Origin: Candidatus Micrarchaeota archaeon
GTDB taxonomy: Archaea > Micrarchaeota > Micrarchaeia > Micrarchaeales > CABMGC01
DNA length: 64,000 nucleotides
NCBI GenBank assembly: GCA_028866995.1
Contig: JAGWHD010000001.1
Span: 636,068-700,067 of the forward strand
Direction of reading: 5' to 3'
In this document: positions 43,472 through 50,066 of the stretch, in pieces
How the letters are laid out: every line of letters starts with the position of its first letter
How positions within the stretch are numbered: the stretch's first letter is position 1
Position numbers and translations under genes: made by a program
Notes under the pieces: generated by a model
Databases searched by the model: none
Seen by the model: the letters and a program-made list of their open reading frames with translations, nothing else
What the model was told of the DNA's origin: nothing

Positions 43472-44871
43472 CCGAGCAGCACGAACGGCAGCACCCCTAG
43501 GACTACTGAGGCTGCGATGAGCAGCACCGCGCCGGCCATGACCTCCCTGTCTATGGCGTTGTAGGGCTCGGTGACCCTCGAGCTCCTGAAGAAGGTCGTC
43601 TCAGCCACCCAGAAGAGCGCAGCGCCGACTACCGCGAGGCCGAGCAGCGGCAGCAGCGAGACGAACTTGAATGTTGAGAACGATCCTATGAAGACGAGGA
43701 CATCCCCTACGAACCCTGCTGTCAGGGGCAGCCCGAGGAGCATGAAGGCCCCTGCGACGAAGAGGTACGCAAGCCACGGGAAGTTCCTGACGACGCCGCC
43801 TATCTTGCTTATCTCCATGGTCCCGTAGAGCTCGTCGAGCGTGCCAGCTATCAGGAAGAGGAGCGACACTGCTATGCCGTGCGCCAGCATCAGGAACAGC
43901 GCACCTGATACGCCTATCTGGCTGCCCGACGCAATCCCCATGCCTACTATCCCCATGTCGGTTATGCTCGTATATGCTATCATCCTCTTGATGTTGGTCT
44001 GCCTGAGGGTGAGTATCGCCGCGTATGTGGATGAGAGTATGAACAGGAGCGCCATGTGCAGAGCGTAGTGCCGTGCAAGCGGCAGCAGCAGGAACATGAG
44101 GAAGAGGCCGTAGCCTCCGAACTTGAGCAGCACCCCTGCCAGAATCATGCTTCCTGTGGTGGGAGCCTCTGTGTGCGCGTCAGGGAGCCACGTGTGCAAC
44201 GGGAACACGGGCATCTTTATCAGGAAGGAGCCAAGCATCAGCGCTATTATCGCGAGCTGCACCTCATTCGGTATCGAGTTCGCGAAGGTGCGCAGCTCCG
44301 AGATGCTGAATGTGTGGACTGATGAGCCAGTGTATATGAGTATTATCGCTATCAGAAGCATGAGGCTCGAGACTATTGAATAGAGTATGAACTTGAGCGA
44401 CGCGTACCTCCTGTTGAAGCCTCCGTACAGGAATATGATGAAGAACATCATGACCTCGCCGATCTCCCAGAAGAGGTAGAACAGGAAGAGGTTGCCCGAG
44501 AGGAAGACCCCGAGCGACGACCCCTCGGCAAGCAGGAAGATGATGCTGTATATCCTCTCGCGCTCCCGTATGAAGTACCTTCCGACAACCGATGCCGCGA
44601 GGAATACCACGCTCGTCATGACAGCGAGCATCAGCCCCGCGCTCGTGAGCCCGAACTCGAAGCCTATCCCTAGCTCCTTTATGTAGGCGCTGTTGAAGGA
44701 TAGCGAATCGAGGCCGTTCGCGTACGCGAGATACGCCATAAGCGCGACCAGCGCAAACGTGGCTATCGAAGCGCCGAGCGCGACATCATGGGCGCGCCTC
44801 CTGTCGAACACGAGCAGCGGGACTATCGCAGCGAGAGGCACAAGCACTATCAGGGGCAGTAGTGGCAGCAT
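43468..44871 (-). CDS. NuoM/ND4/MrpD-type proton-conducting antiporter-like subunit (orphan)
   Basis: FPLHTWLPDAHTEAPTTGSMILAGVLLKFGGYGL signature. About 14 TM. The ATG overlaps the upstream AAA gene's TGA (TGATG). An alternative GTG lies at 44874. Confidence 0.75.
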   Translation of the reverse strand: MLPLLPLIVLVPLAAIVPLLVFDRRRAHDVALGASIATFALVALMAYLAYANGLDSLSFNSAYIKELGIGFEFGLTSAGLMLAVMTSVVFLAASVVGRYFIRERERIYSIIFLLAEGSSLGVFLSGNLFLFYLFWEIGEVMMFFIIFLYGGFNRRYASLKFILYSIVSSLMLLIAIILIYTGSSVHTFSISELRTFANSIPNEVQLAIIALMLGSFLIKMPVFPLHTWLPDAHTEAPTTGSMILAGVLLKFGGYGLFLMFLLLPLARHYALHMALLFILSSTYAAILTLRQTNIKRMIAYTSITDMGIVGMGIASGSQIGVSGALFLMLAHGIAVSLLFLIAGTLDELYGTMEISKIGGVVRNFPWLAYLFVAGAFMLLGLPLTAGFVGDVLVFIGSFSTFKFVSLLPLLGLAVVGAALFWVAETTFFRSSRVTEPYNAIDREVMAGAVLLIAASVVLGVLPFVLLG

Positions 44872-47684
44872 CACTTACCCCCATGGAGCGCGAGGAAGTT
44901 TATGTACCTTCCAAGCACCGATTCAGGAGCGGATGGCCTTATCGTGTCAAGCGCCTTCAGCAGCTCCTTCATCGTTATCTTCGATTCCTGCGCCGTCGAC
45001 AGGTCCTTCTCGAGAGCTGACATCTTGCACTGCCTGCAGACGTTCGCGATGTCTGCGCCGGTGTATCCTACCGTCATGGAAGCCAGTTTCTCGAAATCGA
45101 CGTCGTCAGACAGCGCCACCTTCCTCAGATAATGCTTGAACAGCTGCTCCCTGTCATCCTTGCCCGGAGGCGCCACGAATATCAGCCTGTCGAACCTGCC
45201 TCCCCTGAGCATTGCTGAGTCGAGCTGGTCCGGCCTGTTCGTGACGCCGACGACCACTATGCCTGAGCTAGGCTTTATGCCGTCGAACTCCTGAAGGAAC
45301 TCCCCGACTATTCCTACTCCGAGCTCGCTTGCGCTGTCCCTTCCTGGCAGCAGCGCGTCTATCTCATCTATGAATACTATCGCAGGCGCGTTCTCCTTGG
45401 CCCTGTTGAACGTCTCCTTGACTGTGAAGACGGCACGCTCGAGCCCCAGCCTGCTGACGTCTGCTCCAGACAGTATCACCATGTGCACGTCTCCAAGCTC
45501 GTTGGCTATCGCGCGCATCAGCATCGTCTTTCCCGTTCCCGGAGGGCCGAACAGCAGTATGCCCTTGGTCTCCGGCACGTCGTACTTCTTGACGAGGTTC
45601 GGATGCAGTATCGGCACCTCGACAGCCTCGTACAGCGCCTTCTTCGCGCTCTCCAGCCCTATGACATCGTCTATGCTGATCGTGCTCTCGCGCCTGTCGA
45701 GCATCTCCGGATGGGTCCTCCTCTCGTAGTCCATCTTGAAGGTGTTGTACTGGTCTATCCTGGACAGCGACGTCGAGGGCTTCGTTATCTTTATGACGTT
45801 GAGCAGGTCGGCGGTGTTCATCTGCAGCACCTTCGCCTCCTTCACCGCCTCGTCCGCGACCTTCCTGGCAGCTTCCTCGCAGACGTTCTTTATGTCCGCT
45901 CCGGTGTACCTGTTCGTCAGCGAGGTCAGCTTGTCGAAGTCTACGCTCTTGCTGACTGGCAGGTTCCTGAGATAATGCCTGAAGATCTTCTCACGCCCGT
46001 CCTTGTCCGGCAATTCCATGTATATTATCTTGTCGAACCTCCCCGGCCTGAGTATGCTCGGGTCCAAAAGGTTGGGCACGTTGGTCGAGCCGACTATCAC
46101 GACCCCCTCTATCTTCTGGAACCCGTCCATCTCGCTGAGGAGCGTCGACAGCAGCTGCCTGTCCCCGGCGGCCGTCTGCAGCTCCCTGTTGCCCGCTATC
46201 CCGTCTATCTCGTCGAAGAAGAGGACCGCTGGAGCGTGCTTCTTCGCCGTCGCGAATATCCTCGAAAGGGTCTGGGAGCTCTCCCCCATGTAGGGCGAGA
46301 GCAGCGAGCTTGTCTTTACGTAGAAGAACCTCGCGCGCAGCTCGTTGGCTATCGCGCGCATCAGCATGGTCTTTCCCGTTCCCGGAGGGCCGAAGAGAAG
46401 GATTCCCTTCGCCGGCTTTATGTTGTAGGCTCCGGATATCTCCCTGTGCTCTATCGGCGCGAGTATCGCCTCGCGCAGCTCCTTCTTGGTCTCCTCATAA
46501 TCGGCAACGTCGTCCAAGGTTTCCCTTGAGCCGCTGGTCAGGTCCTCGAACGCCTCGCCGAACTTCCCCAGGAAGTCCTTCTTCATGACCTCCAGGGCCT
46601 TGACAACTCCTATGTTGTTGAACTCGAGGAAGAATATGACTATCGGCGCGGCTATGAACCCGAATACCACGAAATAGTCGAAGCTTGAGTTGGAGACGTA
46701 AGAGAGCACAGCGTAGTTGGCTAGCAGTATCACCGAGAAGAGGCTCGCAACGGTGCCCTTGTACGCGGACCTGCTGTTTATCACGTACATCGTCATGGCC
46801 GACACGACTACGAGCCACACGGCCATCTCGATGAGCCTGAGCGGGAGGTTGAAGATTACGGCAGATATGACAGCGTCGAAGGCGTTGTATATGTTGCTCG
46901 CGACATCCGGTTTCACCATGTCTCCGAACGCGCCTGAGACCGCATCGGGGAAGCCGAGGAGGCTTGAGATGCGCATCGAAGGGGCCATGAACTGCACTGC
47001 AGGGTTGGATGACATGGCGGCGTGCGCGGCCAATCCGTCATAGATGAACGGCCCGTTCAGCGCCACGCCAGTAACGCCGGACAGGATGCTCAGCATCACC
47101 AGTATCGCGACGACAGATATCATCGCCCTCCTGTAGCCTATGTACAGCACCCCGATTATGAATGCCGGGAGCTCGAGGAAGGAGCCCAGGAAGGAGAGCG
47201 GCAGCATCGACAGCGTGTATACGAACGTTATGCTCCTGTAGTGCTTGTAGCCCAGGAAGAGCGCCACGCTGATGAATAGCGTCATGACCCAGGCGAGCAG
47301 CGGCGCCTGGTACATGAACATGAGCAGGGTCTCGAACAGCAGCCCCATGAGGCCGAGAAGCGGCGAGAGCAGGGTCAGCACGAACGTGCCTATCAGCAAC
47401 GGTATCAGTATCACGTAAGGGAAGAAGGGGAACGCTATGGCTATGCTCGCAGCCGAGAAGACTATGGCCAGCGCGTCAGGGAAGTTCTCATGGCTCACGA
47501 ACTGCCTGAGCACGTCCTTGAGCCAGTAGAACGACAGGGGCACGTGCGTGTATCTCTGGTGCTTCTGCGGTGTCCCGTCAACATCCTCGGGCACCGAGCC
47601 TGCGGTCTCCTCACTCCCCGACAGCAGGTTGGGCATCTTCGCCTTGGGAGACGCTCTCCTACCATCAGCTCCTTTAGCAGGCAT
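44871..47684 (-). CDS. Membrane-anchored tandem AAA+ ATPase (Cdc48/VAT-like D1-D2 preceded by a ~390-aa polytopic membrane domain)
   Basis: 937 aa. About 8-10 hydrophobic helices in the N-terminal 390 aa. Two AAA modules, each with GILLFGPPGTGKTMLMRAIANEL (Walker A), FFDEID/FIDEID (Walker B) and second-region-of-homology-like RPGRFD/RGGRFD. Confidence 0.8.
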   Translation of the reverse strand: MPAKGADGRRASPKAKMPNLLSGSEETAGSVPEDVDGTPQKHQRYTHVPLSFYWLKDVLRQFVSHENFPDALAIVFSAASIAIAFPFFPYVILIPLLIGTFVLTLLSPLLGLMGLLFETLLMFMYQAPLLAWVMTLFISVALFLGYKHYRSITFVYTLSMLPLSFLGSFLELPAFIIGVLYIGYRRAMISVVAILVMLSILSGVTGVALNGPFIYDGLAAHAAMSSNPAVQFMAPSMRISSLLGFPDAVSGAFGDMVKPDVASNIYNAFDAVISAVIFNLPLRLIEMAVWLVVVSAMTMYVINSRSAYKGTVASLFSVILLANYAVLSYVSNSSFDYFVVFGFIAAPIVIFFLEFNNIGVVKALEVMKKDFLGKFGEAFEDLTSGSRETLDDVADYEETKKELREAILAPIEHREISGAYNIKPAKGILLFGPPGTGKTMLMRAIANELRARFFYVKTSSLLSPYMGESSQTLSRIFATAKKHAPAVLFFDEIDGIAGNRELQTAAGDRQLLSTLLSEMDGFQKIEGVVIVGSTNVPNLLDPSILRPGRFDKIIYMELPDKDGREKIFRHYLRNLPVSKSVDFDKLTSLTNRYTGADIKNVCEEAARKVADEAVKEAKVLQMNTADLLNVIKITKPSTSLSRIDQYNTFKMDYERRTHPEMLDRRESTISIDDVIGLESAKKALYEAVEVPILHPNLVKKYDVPETKGILLFGPPGTGKTMLMRAIANELGDVHMVILSGADVSRLGLERAVFTVKETFNRAKENAPAIVFIDEIDALLPGRDSASELGVGIVGEFLQEFDGIKPSSGIVVVGVTNRPDQLDSAMLRGGRFDRLIFVAPPGKDDREQLFKHYLRKVALSDDVDFEKLASMTVGYTGADIANVCRQCKMSALEKDLSTAQESKITMKELLKALDTIRPSAPESVLGRYINFLALHGGK
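45496..45551 (-). repeat. 56-nt intragenic repeat, copy in AAA module D2
   Basis: agctcgttggctatcgcgcgcatcagcatCgtctttcccgttcccggagggccgaa. One mismatch to 46339..46394. Confidence 0.9.
46339..46394 (-). repeat. 56-nt intragenic repeat, copy in AAA module D1
   Basis: agctcgttggctatcgcgcgcatcagcatGgtctttcccgttcccggagggccgaa. Confidence 0.9.
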
Positions 47685-47745: not shown

Positions 47746-47844
47746 CCCGTTGTAGCTCAATGGCTAGAGCGGCCGCCTGTAGTTCGTAGCAGCACTTACG
47801 TGTTGGAAAGCGGCAGGTTGGGTGTTCGACTCACCCCAACGGGA
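47746..47844 (+). tRNA. tRNA-Tyr (anticodon GTA) with a 26-nt canonical intron (47783..47808)
   Basis: Hand fold: acceptor CCCGTTG/CAACGGG (C1-G72, as expected for archaeal tRNA-Tyr), D arm GCTC/GAGC, anticodon stem GCCGC/GCGGC enclosing CTGTAG+26+A, T arm GGGTG-TTCGACT-CACCC, discriminator A. Confidence 0.8.
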
Positions 47845-47859
47845 CATAGGTGTTAACGC

Positions 47860-48309
47860 ATGGCTGAAAGCTGCCTGTTCTGCAGGATAGTCAACGGAGA
47901 GCTCCCTTCGTACAGGATATACGAGGACAAAAGGCACATCGCGTTCCTGGACATATTCCCCAACATCAAGGGGCAGACGCTTGTAATACCAAAGGGGCAC
48001 AGGGAGAGCTACGCGTTCGACATAGATGACGAAGAGCTCAAGGAGTTCATGATGGCCGTGAAAAGGGTGTCAAAGCAGATCGAGAGGAAGCTCAACGTGG
48101 GGAGGGTGCACATGGTGCTCGAAGGCACAGGGGTCAACCATCTCCACGCAAAGCTATATCCTGCGATAGGCACCGATAAGGGCTTCAAGGAGCACATTGC
48201 CAAGGAGAATGTCCACTTCGATTCCTATCCGGGATACGTAACTACGCTAATGGGCCCTCGCGCCGATGACAATTATCTCAAGGAGCTGCAGAAACTGCTC
48301 ACTGAATGA
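47860..48309 (+). CDS. HIT-family nucleotide hydrolase/transferase
   Basis: CLFCRIVNGELPSYRIYEDKRHIAFLDIFP and histidine-triad region GVNHLHAKLYP. 149 aa. Confidence 0.85.
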   Translation: MAESCLFCRIVNGELPSYRIYEDKRHIAFLDIFPNIKGQTLVIPKGHRESYAFDIDDEELKEFMMAVKRVSKQIERKLNVGRVHMVLEGTGVNHLHAKLYPAIGTDKGFKEHIAKENVHFDSYPGYVTTLMGPRADDNYLKELQKLLTE

Positions 48310-48339
48310 TGCTGTTAAAAGTGCCTATATGGTGCTTTA

Positions 48340-49080
48340 ATGAAACGATTAACCGCTTATCAAAGGATTATGATAAGGGAACTCGCCAAGACAGGCAGCC
48401 TGAATGAGATTTATACTCGTCTTTCCCTACCAAAATCAACCGTTCAGTATTGGTACAGCGATTACTCTAACTATGTTGCCCCGAAGAGTTTGCGATTTGA
48501 CCTAGGTTCTAACCTGTCAGTAGGTGAATTCATGGGTGCGTTTGCAGGCGATGGTAATTACACAAAAGACCGTGCATACAAGCACCAGATAAGGATTTAC
48601 ATAAACCGAGCAGACACTGGATACATAAACCATCTGAAAGGGCTTATGTTTTCTTTGTTCGGTAAAAATCCAAGCATCTTTATAGATACTAAAAAGAATG
48701 TGGCTGTGCTGCGTTTAGTCTCTGCGGATTTAATAGCGTTTATCCGGACATATCTCAGATGGGAGCATACAAAGACAAAAACAGTGCGATTGGCTCCTGG
48801 AGTAAAGAGAACCAAAGGTTTCATTACCGGTTTTCTAAAGGGGTTAATGGATACTGACGGATACATTAACAAGAAACAACATGTGGCGGTCTTCTCAACG
48901 ATATCCAGTAACCTGGCTAGGGATATAGGAACCTCATTAAGGGGACTTGGGATAAAGTATAATTGCTATAAGAACATTGATAAAAGACCAAATTATAATC
49001 CAATATTCAGGGTTGCTGTGCGACAAGATTTCCTAAAATTCATTAACATTATTAAGCCCTACCATGCAAATAACTTCTAG
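48340..49080 (+). CDS. Free-standing LAGLIDADG-type endonuclease with an N-terminal HTH
   Basis: Two dodecapeptide-like motifs: VGEFMGAFAGDGNY and ITGFLKGLMDTDGYI. N-terminal IMIRELAKTGSLNEIYTRLSLPKSTVQYW (HTH). AT-rich codon usage unlike its neighbours. Confidence 0.7.
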   Translation: MKRLTAYQRIMIRELAKTGSLNEIYTRLSLPKSTVQYWYSDYSNYVAPKSLRFDLGSNLSVGEFMGAFAGDGNYTKDRAYKHQIRIYINRADTGYINHLKGLMFSLFGKNPSIFIDTKKNVAVLRLVSADLIAFIRTYLRWEHTKTKTVRLAPGVKRTKGFITGFLKGLMDTDGYINKKQHVAVFSTISSNLARDIGTSLRGLGIKYNCYKNIDKRPNYNPIFRVAVRQDFLKFINIIKPYHANNF

Positions 49081-49082
49081 AT

Positions 49083-49209
49083 GCCTTGGTCGTCTAGTGG
49101 TTAGGATGCGAGCCTGTCAACACACTTGTTGTGTGGCAGGGCGCTTGCGAGTTTTTGTGAGTTTATTCACAAAGGCCAAGAAACCCGGGTCCGAATCCCG
49201 GCCAAGGCG
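49083..49209 (+). tRNA. tRNA-Asp (anticodon GTC) with two introns: ~22 nt at 37/38 and ~32 nt in the variable region
   Basis: Hand fold: acceptor GCCTTGG/CCAAGGC, D arm GTCT/GGAT, anticodon stem CGAGC/GCTTG enclosing CTGTCA+22+C. 37 nt lie between the anticodon stem and the T stem (4-5 expected), containing the hairpin TTTGTGA/TCACAAA. T arm CCGGG-TCCGAAT-CCCGG. Confidence 0.65.
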
Positions 49210-49268: not shown

Positions 49269-50066
49269 GTGGCAAACAACCTAATGGTAGCTGGAATAGC
49301 TATCGTAATAGTAGTGGTGGCAGCGGGAGCGTTTTTGTACACATCCTCTAGCTCTTCTGGAGGGCTCCATTCTGGAACCAACGGCAACGCGGCCTCGACC
49401 GGAACAACAGGATCGGGAAATGGGGCCCAGGCAAGCACGACCATGCTGCAGACAGGGGCCCAAGGCTCAACAGCAGCAAACGCAAGCGCTGCAGGAGCAG
49501 GCAGCAGTCCGTCTGGAACCCAGCAGCAGTCCTCAGGGACGCTCTCAGGATATCAGCCGGCGCAGTGCGGCTCCGGCAATTCGTGCGTAAGCAACAGCGA
49601 AGCTGTGTCGCTCATAGGCTCAGGCGGCAACTACCAGTCAGGCTATCTCCCTGACTTCGCATCATCGATGGCCAAGGCCGAGGCTGTAAGTGGAGGGAAC
49701 TACAGCGACTACGTTTACACAAACAACATAACCTCGTTGTACGTCGTAGTGTACAATTTCACCCCGACGAACAGCTCTCCGCAGGCATACCTCAAGGCAA
49801 AGTCCCTGATCGAGACAGTATTCGTATCGCCCCATCCGAAGGCGCTGTACGACTACAACCTCAACCAGAGCTTCGGGTACTTCAACGTGACCAACGCGAC
49901 GCTCAACGGTCTGACATACTCGTATCTGGGCTCGAACGGCCAGTACGGCTTCAGCTCGTCAGAGCTCATAGGCTATAAGAACGGCGAGTTCGTGTCGTTC
50001 ATATCGCCCAACGCGTACATAGACCCTACGACCCTCGCGACTGTGGTATCCAAGGACATGCCGTAA
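49269..50066 (+). CDS. Membrane-anchored or secreted protein with a Gly/Ser/Thr/Ala-rich linker
   Basis: N-terminal TM LMVAGIAIVIVVVAAGAFLY, about 90 aa of low-complexity region, then a ~150-aa domain with several N-x-S/T sequons. Start is GTG 49269 or ATG 49284. Confidence 0.5.
   Translation: MANNLMVAGIAIVIVVVAAGAFLYTSSSSSGGLHSGTNGNAASTGTTGSGNGAQASTTMLQTGAQGSTAANASAAGAGSSPSGTQQQSSGTLSGYQPAQCGSGNSCVSNSEAVSLIGSGGNYQSGYLPDFASSMAKAEAVSGGNYSDYVYTNNITSLYVVVYNFTPTNSSPQAYLKAKSLIETVFVSPHPKALYDYNLNQSFGYFNVTNATLNGLTYSYLGSNGQYGFSSSELIGYKNGEFVSFISPNAYIDPTTLATVVSKDMP

Follow-up and report, generated by a model that had tools for sequence, protein, structure and literature searches.

What is a gene for a LAGLIDADG homing endonuclease doing at the very edge of a tRNA gene in an archaeal chromosome? 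The gene lies in a 64,000-nt stretch of DNA from Candidatus Micrarchaeota archaeon (assembly GCA_028866995.1, contig JAGWHD010000001.1, positions 636,068 to 700,067 of the forward strand; hereafter the window, in whose numbering all window coordinates are given). Its stop codon, TAG, ends at position 49080, leaving a gap of 2 nt (AT) before position 1 of a tRNA-Asp gene with two introns. Archaeal homing endonucleases are familiar from rRNA introns and inteins. A preliminary description of the locus, made from its letters, had offered three origins for the gene: a recently mobilised or domesticated endonuclease, a remnant of an intron that once carried it, or a DNA-binding regulator derived from such an enzyme. 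We consider it likely that the gene is an active, selfish, free-standing homing endonuclease gene (HEG) that targets or rides on tRNA genes, in the manner of SegB of phage T4; its cleavage activity and its target are what we infer from the comparisons below.

The open reading frame (ORF) is intact, with an ATG start and a TAG stop. The preliminary description placed it at 48310–49082; the ORF is real, but that span also takes in a 30-nt spacer after the upstream HIT gene and the 2 nt past the TAG (exact limits in Table 1). The Pfam model LAGLIDADG_3 (PF14528) matches residues 161–236 with 51.4 bits (cut-off 22.5; E 1.3e-13), a profile match that bears out an assignment first made from motifs. 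No Pfam model matches the first LAGLIDADG domain, which is recognised only through its motif and its predicted fold. The two motifs, described as about 100 amino acids (aa) apart, are separated by 101 aa, and each keeps its catalytic acidic residue across the family introduced below, D71 in 31/31 members and D173 in 30/31.

An AlphaFold (AF2) model, built from ten family sequences, has a pLDDT of 87.8 and consists of an N-terminal bundle followed by two pseudo-symmetric alpha-beta-beta-alpha-beta-beta-alpha domains, predicted to make up a DNA-binding saddle. With this predicted model as the Foldseek query, the top matches among solved structures are the TliVMA intein endonuclease domain, I-DmoI (template modelling score 0.77 on the target), I-SceI, PI-SceI and I-Tsp061I, with a Foldseek probability of 1.00 for I-DmoI, I-SceI and PI-SceI; WhiA comes lower in the list. 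Searches with the sequence only give weak matches to PI-PfuI and to intein-bearing NCBIfam models. The ORF product is thus modelled as a single-chain, two-domain LAGLIDADG protein with an I-DmoI-like fold, and Pfam match, motifs and predicted fold agree on a free-standing gene for a single-chain enzyme, as originally proposed. The N-terminal helix-turn-helix (HTH) proposed with it fares less well: three helices are present at that place in the AF2 model, but no profile matches them, and the bundle is best called a putative HTH. In the family alignment, Y37 of the bundle is invariant, and K32, T34 and V35 are nearly so.

The fold alone would also suit an old domesticated resident, that is, a vertically inherited, repeatedly lost DNA or RNA binder of LAGLIDADG origin (WhiA-like or maturase-like) with a role in the expression or processing of tRNA-Asp. 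WhiA is a conserved housekeeping transcription factor of bacteria that has lost the catalytic residues and carries a C-terminal HTH. It shares with the present protein a LAGLIDADG scaffold joined to an HTH, and both its appearance among the structural matches and the putative HTH itself speak for domestication. The present protein differs from WhiA in the N-terminal position of its putative HTH, in its conserved catalytic Asp and in its patchy distribution. Retention of both catalytic Asp residues in the family, unlike in WhiA, speaks for a functional nuclease rather than a binder of the WhiA kind.

The position of the gene next to a tRNA is a property of the whole family. We sampled the only ten relatives present in a large protein database (30–65% identity), with their contigs, and 35 further loci from JGI metagenomes; loci are designated by L numbers. 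Transfer RNAs were called by ARAGORN, run in its intron mode, and by the Rfam tRNA model, and proteins were clustered at 90% identity. A tRNA gene lies at the 3' end of the ORF in 32/33 distinct family members, at gaps of −135 to +41 nt and in co-directional or convergent orientation, and five tRNA species (Asp, Gly, Ala-like, Arg and His) are involved. Members of the close Micrarchaeota clade are followed by a co-directional tRNA-Asp(GUC), with gaps of 2 nt in the window, 2 in L001, 1 in L003, 10 in L005, 0 in L006, −15 in L131, −15 in L164, 0 in L166 and 9 in L167. A clade from brine and hypersaline samples converges, with gaps of 0–41 nt, on the 3' end of tRNA-Asp (L007, L134, L135, L139, L146, L148, L150 and L151) or on tRNA-Gly(GCC) (L153, L155 and L157). 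Other convergent members adjoin tRNA-Gly(UCC) (L138, L141, L143 and L145) or tRNA-Arg(GCG) (L133), and other co-directional ones adjoin tRNA-His(GUG), tRNA-Gly(CCC), tRNA-Arg(GCG) or tRNAs whose G3:U70 pair is typical of tRNA-Ala. The stop codon of the ORF falls inside the tRNA in L008, L131, L152, L154, L161 and L164. By our own rough estimate, a random gene 3' end would be expected within 45 nt of a tRNA in a few per cent of cases. Given this low expectation, the several tRNA species and the two orientations, the abutment is not due to chance, and its occurrence throughout the family points to a selfish element with tRNA genes for a landing site.

The sole member in which no downstream tRNA is detectable is L140/L142. 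There, and also in L131, the ORF comes after a 5S rRNA gene. The endonuclease gene stands directly after the 5S rRNA gene in L140 (2792–3783); the order in L131 (2490–3711) is tRNA-Tyr, 5S rRNA, HEG and tRNA-Asp, and the L131 protein has no N-terminal helix bundle.

The gene is not fixed in its hosts. We scanned GTDB species genomes for the 3' part of the window tRNA-Asp and obtained 120 loci, 41 of them labelled Micrarchaeota. By tblastn, a close relative of the endonuclease ORF is present at 0/120 of these loci, including the 41 from Micrarchaeota, and a family-profile search of the six-frame translations of the 41 found neither a HEG nor a decayed copy. The family profile finds only distant LAGLIDADG pieces, in loci of other phyla (L014, L021 and L114). 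In L021 (Aenigmarchaeota) two adjacent, frame-shifted pieces at ~446–1013 on the opposite strand, possibly a decaying copy, lie ~300 nt upstream of tRNA-Asp (1317–1390) and point away from it; in L114 a C-terminal piece runs into an intron-bearing tRNA. Two Micrarchaeota genomes retain, in recognisable form, only the T arm and acceptor of tRNA-Asp, with the 3' end at oriented position 6786 in L096 and at 594 in L017. Their 5' halves are found neither in the preceding 140 nt nor in the rest of the 8-kb and 2.4-kb tiles, and these genes may contain a very long intron or be split.

The region around the gene is conserved in the order AAA gene (reverse strand), tRNA-Tyr, a variable gene set and tRNA-Asp, and the empty sites whose existence the preliminary description left to be checked are there. 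In L060 the HIT orthologue (67% identical to that of the window) is followed by 24 nt and tRNA-Asp, with no endonuclease gene; L055, L046 and L063 resemble it, and in L055 tRNA-Asp comes directly after the HIT orthologue. Intact empty sites are present in L066 and L111 as well, and ten other loci run from the reverse-strand AAA gene to tRNA-Asp without an endonuclease gene. What sets the occupied sites apart from these is one inserted ORF of ~770 bp, placed between tRNA-Asp and its upstream neighbour.

This comparison bears on two further origins, a remnant of an ORF-bearing archaeal intron and the cargo of an integrase-type element that targets tRNAs, which we regard, taken together, as very improbable. 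In their favour, rRNA introns encode archaeal LAGLIDADG enzymes such as I-DmoI, which together with the intein endonucleases comes nearest to the predicted fold; tRNA genes, for their part, are classic integration sites. An intron-encoded ORF would be expected inside a bulge-helix-bulge intron of an rRNA or tRNA gene, however, whereas the present one ends before the tRNA, an external position common to 32 relatives, and positions 1 to 73 of the tRNA are all present downstream of it. The remnant of an intron raised in the preliminary description thus finds no support. At each locus the tRNA is complete and the ORF external to it, and the two ORF flanks do not pair more stably than shuffled sequence (flank duplex −15.7 kcal/mol, shuffles −14.1 +/- 3.3 kcal/mol). 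The ORF read as an excisable, intron-like leader was rejected on the same ground. As to an integrase-type element, nothing but the ~770-bp ORF is extra relative to the empty sites (no integrase, repeats or other element genes), and the insertion is at the 5' edge of the tRNA, not in its 3' half.

To place the HEG-bearing loci among their hosts, we use the AAA protein as a marker (neighbour-joining, 486 ungapped columns, 100 bootstrap replicates). HEG-bearing loci pair with HEG-free sisters at 100% bootstrap in three cases (window with L066, L006 with L046 and L003 with L111) and at 58% in a fourth (L005 with L126), and the HEG-bearing loci are monophyletic in 0/100 replicates. This interleaving indicates several gains or many losses, which fit the life cycle of a homing endonuclease and not that of a housekeeping gene.

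The same data bear on the domesticated tRNA factor. In its favour, the gene keeps a constant place in the conserved region (AAA, tRNA-Tyr ... tRNA-Asp) even though the AAA proteins are only ~40% identical, the ORF is intact in nearly all members and always aimed at the tRNA, and a likely tRNA promoter lies within it. A WhiA-like protein would be retained universally and without its catalytic residues; here the Asp is conserved and the gene is absent from 41/41 sampled Micrarchaeota species representatives. Moreover, the closest sister lineages have the same tRNA-Asp and no such gene, and so evidently no need of it, the family stands beside five tRNA species in two orientations, and the base composition at third codon positions is far from host usage in every lineage. 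With the gene missing from sisters that have this tRNA, and with the nuclease residues retained, a domesticated factor is improbable. The DNA-binding regulator of the preliminary description is likewise not supported, given catalytic Asp residues kept in 31/31 and 30/31 members and a gene missing from sister lineages.

The G+C content (GC) of the endonuclease ORF is 0.398, against 0.541 for the window, and is the lowest of all 741-nt stretches in the 64 kb (mean 0.541, standard deviation 0.026). At third codon positions (GC3) the value is 0.42, against 0.68–0.81 in five neighbours (the AAA, HIT, 265-aa, ADH and dehydrogenase genes). The deviating composition first noticed from hand counts is thereby confirmed. 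The eight related HEG-bearing loci examined are all low in GC as well (ORF 0.33–0.40, flanking DNA 0.46–0.53), as expected of a weakly selected or horizontally moving selfish gene, while the proteins of these close relatives are 45–65% identical to one another and to that of the window. Since all eight loci share it, low GC is no mark of recent arrival; with the same tRNA-Asp position kept as well despite 45–65% identity, the word 'recently' in the preliminary description is not specifically supported. Low GC is a standing property of the gene, which fits weak codon-usage selection or continuing movement between hosts. Orthologues of native composition at conserved positions in all relatives, which would have marked an old resident gene, were not found; the orthologues are scattered and always of non-native composition.

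A selfish gene of this kind could spread as follows. In a HEG-free genome, the enzyme would cut in or beside the tRNA-Asp gene, whose sequence is conserved enough to occur in every potential recipient. The break would be repaired from a HEG-carrying copy, so that the ~770-bp ORF is copied in together with adjoining tRNA sequence, comparable to the intron-less homing of T4 SegB. Tight abutment on the tRNA would hold the gene within the co-conversion tract and so maximise co-conversion, at small cost to the host. Protection of the resident tRNA-Asp allele probably comes from the insertion, the introns of the tRNA or its variant T loop. The tRNA probably retains a promoter, since the A/T-rich terminal codons of the ORF supply a TATA-like box, ATTATTAA (Table 1), as a candidate. 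A/T-rich boxes lie at a similar distance from the tRNA in L001, L003, L005 and L006, and TTTAAA-type boxes stand equally far upstream of tRNA-Asp in HEG-free loci.

Several points weigh against selfish spread as the explanation. Most of the family loci are metagenome contigs with presumed taxonomy (Micrarchaeota and other, presumably DPANN, archaea). The ORF always points towards the tRNA, an orientation for which homing alone does not account. One old insertion followed by many losses can yield the same patchiness. HEG identities (45–65%) are not clearly higher than those of the HIT (50–63%) and AAA (38–45%) proteins for the same pairs, so recent horizontal transfer is not demonstrated. The endonucleases of the window, L001 and L003 group apart from those of L005 and L006, and in the AAA tree the window is far from L003, L005 and L006; all identities, however, fall within 38–65%, and the deep branches of that tree are short. 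As for viral vectors, no relatives are found in IMG/VR contigs.

The tRNA-Asp of the window offers a possible refinement of homing at tRNA genes. The two-intron gene is confirmed by Rfam in sensitive mode (36.5 bits, gathering threshold 29, E 1.5e-5), which gives GUC as the anticodon and places one insertion behind position 37 and the other ahead of the T stem; the gene is reported neither by ARAGORN with default settings nor at the Rfam gathering threshold with fast filters. Intron 1 has homologues in L006, L164 and L166, and also in the HEG-free L067. The insertion site of intron 2 is used in L003, L005 and L131b too. The minimum free energy (MFE) fold around intron 2 gives a helix, a 3-nt bulge and a hairpin with no canonical second bulge, and the splice points of this intron are given approximately. 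The T arm (49185–49201) has the T loop TCCGAAT, with C at position 55, which is almost universally U (pseudouridine). This change, U55C, is also seen in L001, L006 and L164 and in the HEG-free L066 and L095.

Tentatively, these features may be read as signs of collaborative homing, in which the target would lie inside tRNA-Asp (close to variable loop and T arm, or in the anticodon loop) and introns or U55C would interrupt it and so confer self-immunity. The free-standing HEG and the ORF-less bulge-helix-bulge tRNA introns would then spread jointly. We give this reading, a refinement of the main one and compatible with it, a low probability. An intron-bearing tRNA-Asp is found in 8/9 HEG-bearing loci of the Micrarchaeota clade and in about 10/40 HEG-free ones (Fisher p = 7e-4; raw counts that ignore shared ancestry). 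Intron 2 before the T stem is present in 4 HEG-bearing loci and in 0/41 HEG-free Micrarchaeota tRNA-Asp loci, and 'intron 2 or U55C' in 7/8 HEG-bearing and 3/41 HEG-free loci (p = 1e-5; again raw counts ignoring shared ancestry); the window tRNA-Asp itself carries U55C, which by itself occurs in 3/41 HEG-free Micrarchaeota loci. In the first six loci of the clade, introns are present in 6/6 and intron 2 in 4, and the remaining two (L001 and L006) carry U55C. The sisters L006 (HEG-bearing) and L046 (HEG-free) share the 5' half of the tRNA and differ in intron 1, in the variable loop and at position 55. Among the other HEG-linked tRNAs, many contain two introns or are interrupted in the T loop. 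There are precedents in F-CphI with the psbA intron and mobE with I-TevIII (PMC6083498, PMC2790892), and for recognition of the T arm in SegB (PMC2330249).

The rule that a HEG-linked tRNA-Asp has an intron together with intron 2 or U55C was made post hoc and then applied to three further loci, L164, L166 and L167. L164 conforms to it (intron 1, an AAAC variable loop and U55C), and L166 does so as far as the contig extends. In L167, however, the tRNA-Asp that lies 9 nt from the HEG is canonical, has no intron and keeps a normal T loop; the association is therefore kept only as a statistical tendency. Intronless tRNAs also adjoin the distant members L007, L135 and L148 (Asp), L138 (Gly) and L008 (His), and intron 1 occurs without a HEG in L067, L060 and L071. 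Immunity mutations at the exon level in the D arm were considered and rejected, as D-arm variants track host clades and not HEG presence.

More doubtful still is the general form of this proposal, in which LAGLIDADG endonucleases at tRNA edges are the engine of archaeal tRNA-intron mobility: they would cut intronless or canonical-T-arm alleles, and repair would copy the HEG along with the shielding introns. If true, this would explain why tRNAs that adjoin a HEG are rich in introns, including non-canonical ones before or inside the T arm. Non-canonical intron sites do cluster in HEG-linked tRNAs; the tRNA-Gly(UCC) genes of L141, L143 and L145 have a ~27-nt insertion in the T arm after the 5' strand of the T stem, and two of them also have an anticodon-loop intron.

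The tRNA-Tyr(GUA) gene, a syntenic marker that is likewise present in L001, L003, L005, L006 and L131, has an intron of ~26 nt after the anticodon and is missed by ARAGORN with default settings; in L111, tRNA-Tyr and tRNA-Asp are just 14 nt apart. The AAA protein (937 aa) combines a multi-pass membrane N-terminal half with two AAA+ modules and is conserved beside tRNA-Tyr and tRNA-Asp across Micrarchaeota. Downstream of tRNA-Asp, a 265-aa ORF (49269–50066, forward strand) encodes an N-terminal hydrophobic segment and a long region rich in Ser, Thr, Gly, Ala and Gln. It has no Pfam match and no tblastn match in the other loci, and is absent from L001, where ADH directly follows tRNA-Asp.

Table 1 Features of the endonuclease locus, in window coordinates
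Feature	Position	Strand	Basis
Membrane-anchored double AAA+ ATPase gene, host marker	44871..47684	−	ORF; orthologues flank tRNA-Asp in HEG-bearing and HEG-free loci
tRNA-Tyr(GUA) gene with intron, syntenic marker	47746..47844	+	Rfam 56.1 bits; anticodon read from sequence
HIT-family hydrolase gene, upstream neighbour	47860..48309	+	Pfam HIT 49.4 bits
LAGLIDADG endonuclease gene, single-chain, free-standing, 246 aa	48340..49080	+	ORF list, Pfam, AF2 model, identical NCBI protein
N-terminal three-helix bundle, putative HTH	48355..48468 (residues 6–43)	+	Predicted helices 6–16, 21–28, 32–43
LAGLIDADG motif 1, FMGAFAGDGNY, catalytic D71	48529..48561 (residues 64–74)	+	G70-D71-G72 invariant in 31/31 members
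LAGLIDADG motif 2, FLKGLMDTDGYI, catalytic D173	48832..48867 (residues 165–176)	+	D173 in 30/31, G174 in 31/31 members; inside Pfam match
TATA-like ATTATTAA in last ORF codons, candidate tRNA-Asp promoter	49048..49055 (−35..−28 from tRNA position 1)	+	Read from sequence
tRNA-Asp(GUC) gene, 127 nt, two intervening sequences	49083..49209	+	Rfam tRNA model; alignment with intronless relatives; MFE z-score −4.1
Intron 1 of tRNA-Asp, after position 37	49120..49141 (+/-2 nt)	+	Alignment with 73-nt intronless alleles
4-nt variable loop and ~33-nt intron 2, just 5' of T stem	49148..49184	+	Alignment; intron 2 limits approximate

The protein class itself is already known: a protein identical to that of the window, from a 727-kb contig of a Candidatus Micrarchaeota metagenome-assembled genome, is labelled 'LAGLIDADG family homing endonuclease' at NCBI. 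With I-DmoI, I-Tsp061I, TliVMA and PI-PfuI it shares a LAGLIDADG fold in which a single chain forms both domains and each motif supplies one catalytic acidic residue. Enzymes of the I-DmoI type are encoded within rRNA introns or inteins, however, whereas the present ORF is free-standing, outside a tRNA gene but touching it; the protein also has the N-terminal three-helix extension, and its sequence identity to those enzymes is 16–22%.

The closest parallel in arrangement is T4 SegB, a free-standing HEG in a tRNA cluster. It recognises a site of 27 bp that takes in the T-psi-C stem-loop motif of a tRNA gene, and it spreads with adjoining tRNA DNA through gene conversion (PMC2330249). The likeness is that of a free-standing HEG among tRNA genes. 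SegB is a GIY-YIG enzyme of a phage, with no abutment of less than 10 nt reported, whereas the present enzyme is a LAGLIDADG protein of an archaeal chromosome with a target that we infer. A second parallel is provided by F-CphI with the psbA intron of cyanophage S-PM2 and by mobE with I-TevIII of T4, in which an intron interrupts the target of the HEG and travels along with it (PMC6083498, PMC2790892). There, too, a free-standing HEG stands beside an intron-containing gene, and the HEG-linked tRNAs described here are enriched in introns; the phage introns are self-splicing group I introns, whereas the tRNA introns are short, protein-spliced archaeal ones, and their association with the HEG has exceptions (L167 and others).

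In the literature searched, coverage of which is incomplete so that novelty is unproven, there is no description of tRNA-abutting LAGLIDADG genes in DPANN archaea. We have likewise found no account of archaeal LAGLIDADG genes that form a free-standing lineage docked on tRNA genes in Micrarchaeota and other, presumably DPANN, archaea, nor of the link between such a lineage and intron-rich tRNAs.

The presence of HEGs docked on tRNA genes explains local dips in GC and why standard annotators overlook some tRNA genes, and enzymes that recognise highly conserved tRNA gene sequences could serve as rare cutters. A free-standing lineage that docks on tRNA genes would represent a new lifestyle for this enzyme class in cells, an archaeal counterpart of the SegB-type elements of phages. 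To our knowledge, no enzyme has been assigned to the spread of archaeal tRNA introns, and the family described here would provide a concrete candidate for the spread of short, protein-spliced tRNA introns between archaeal genomes.

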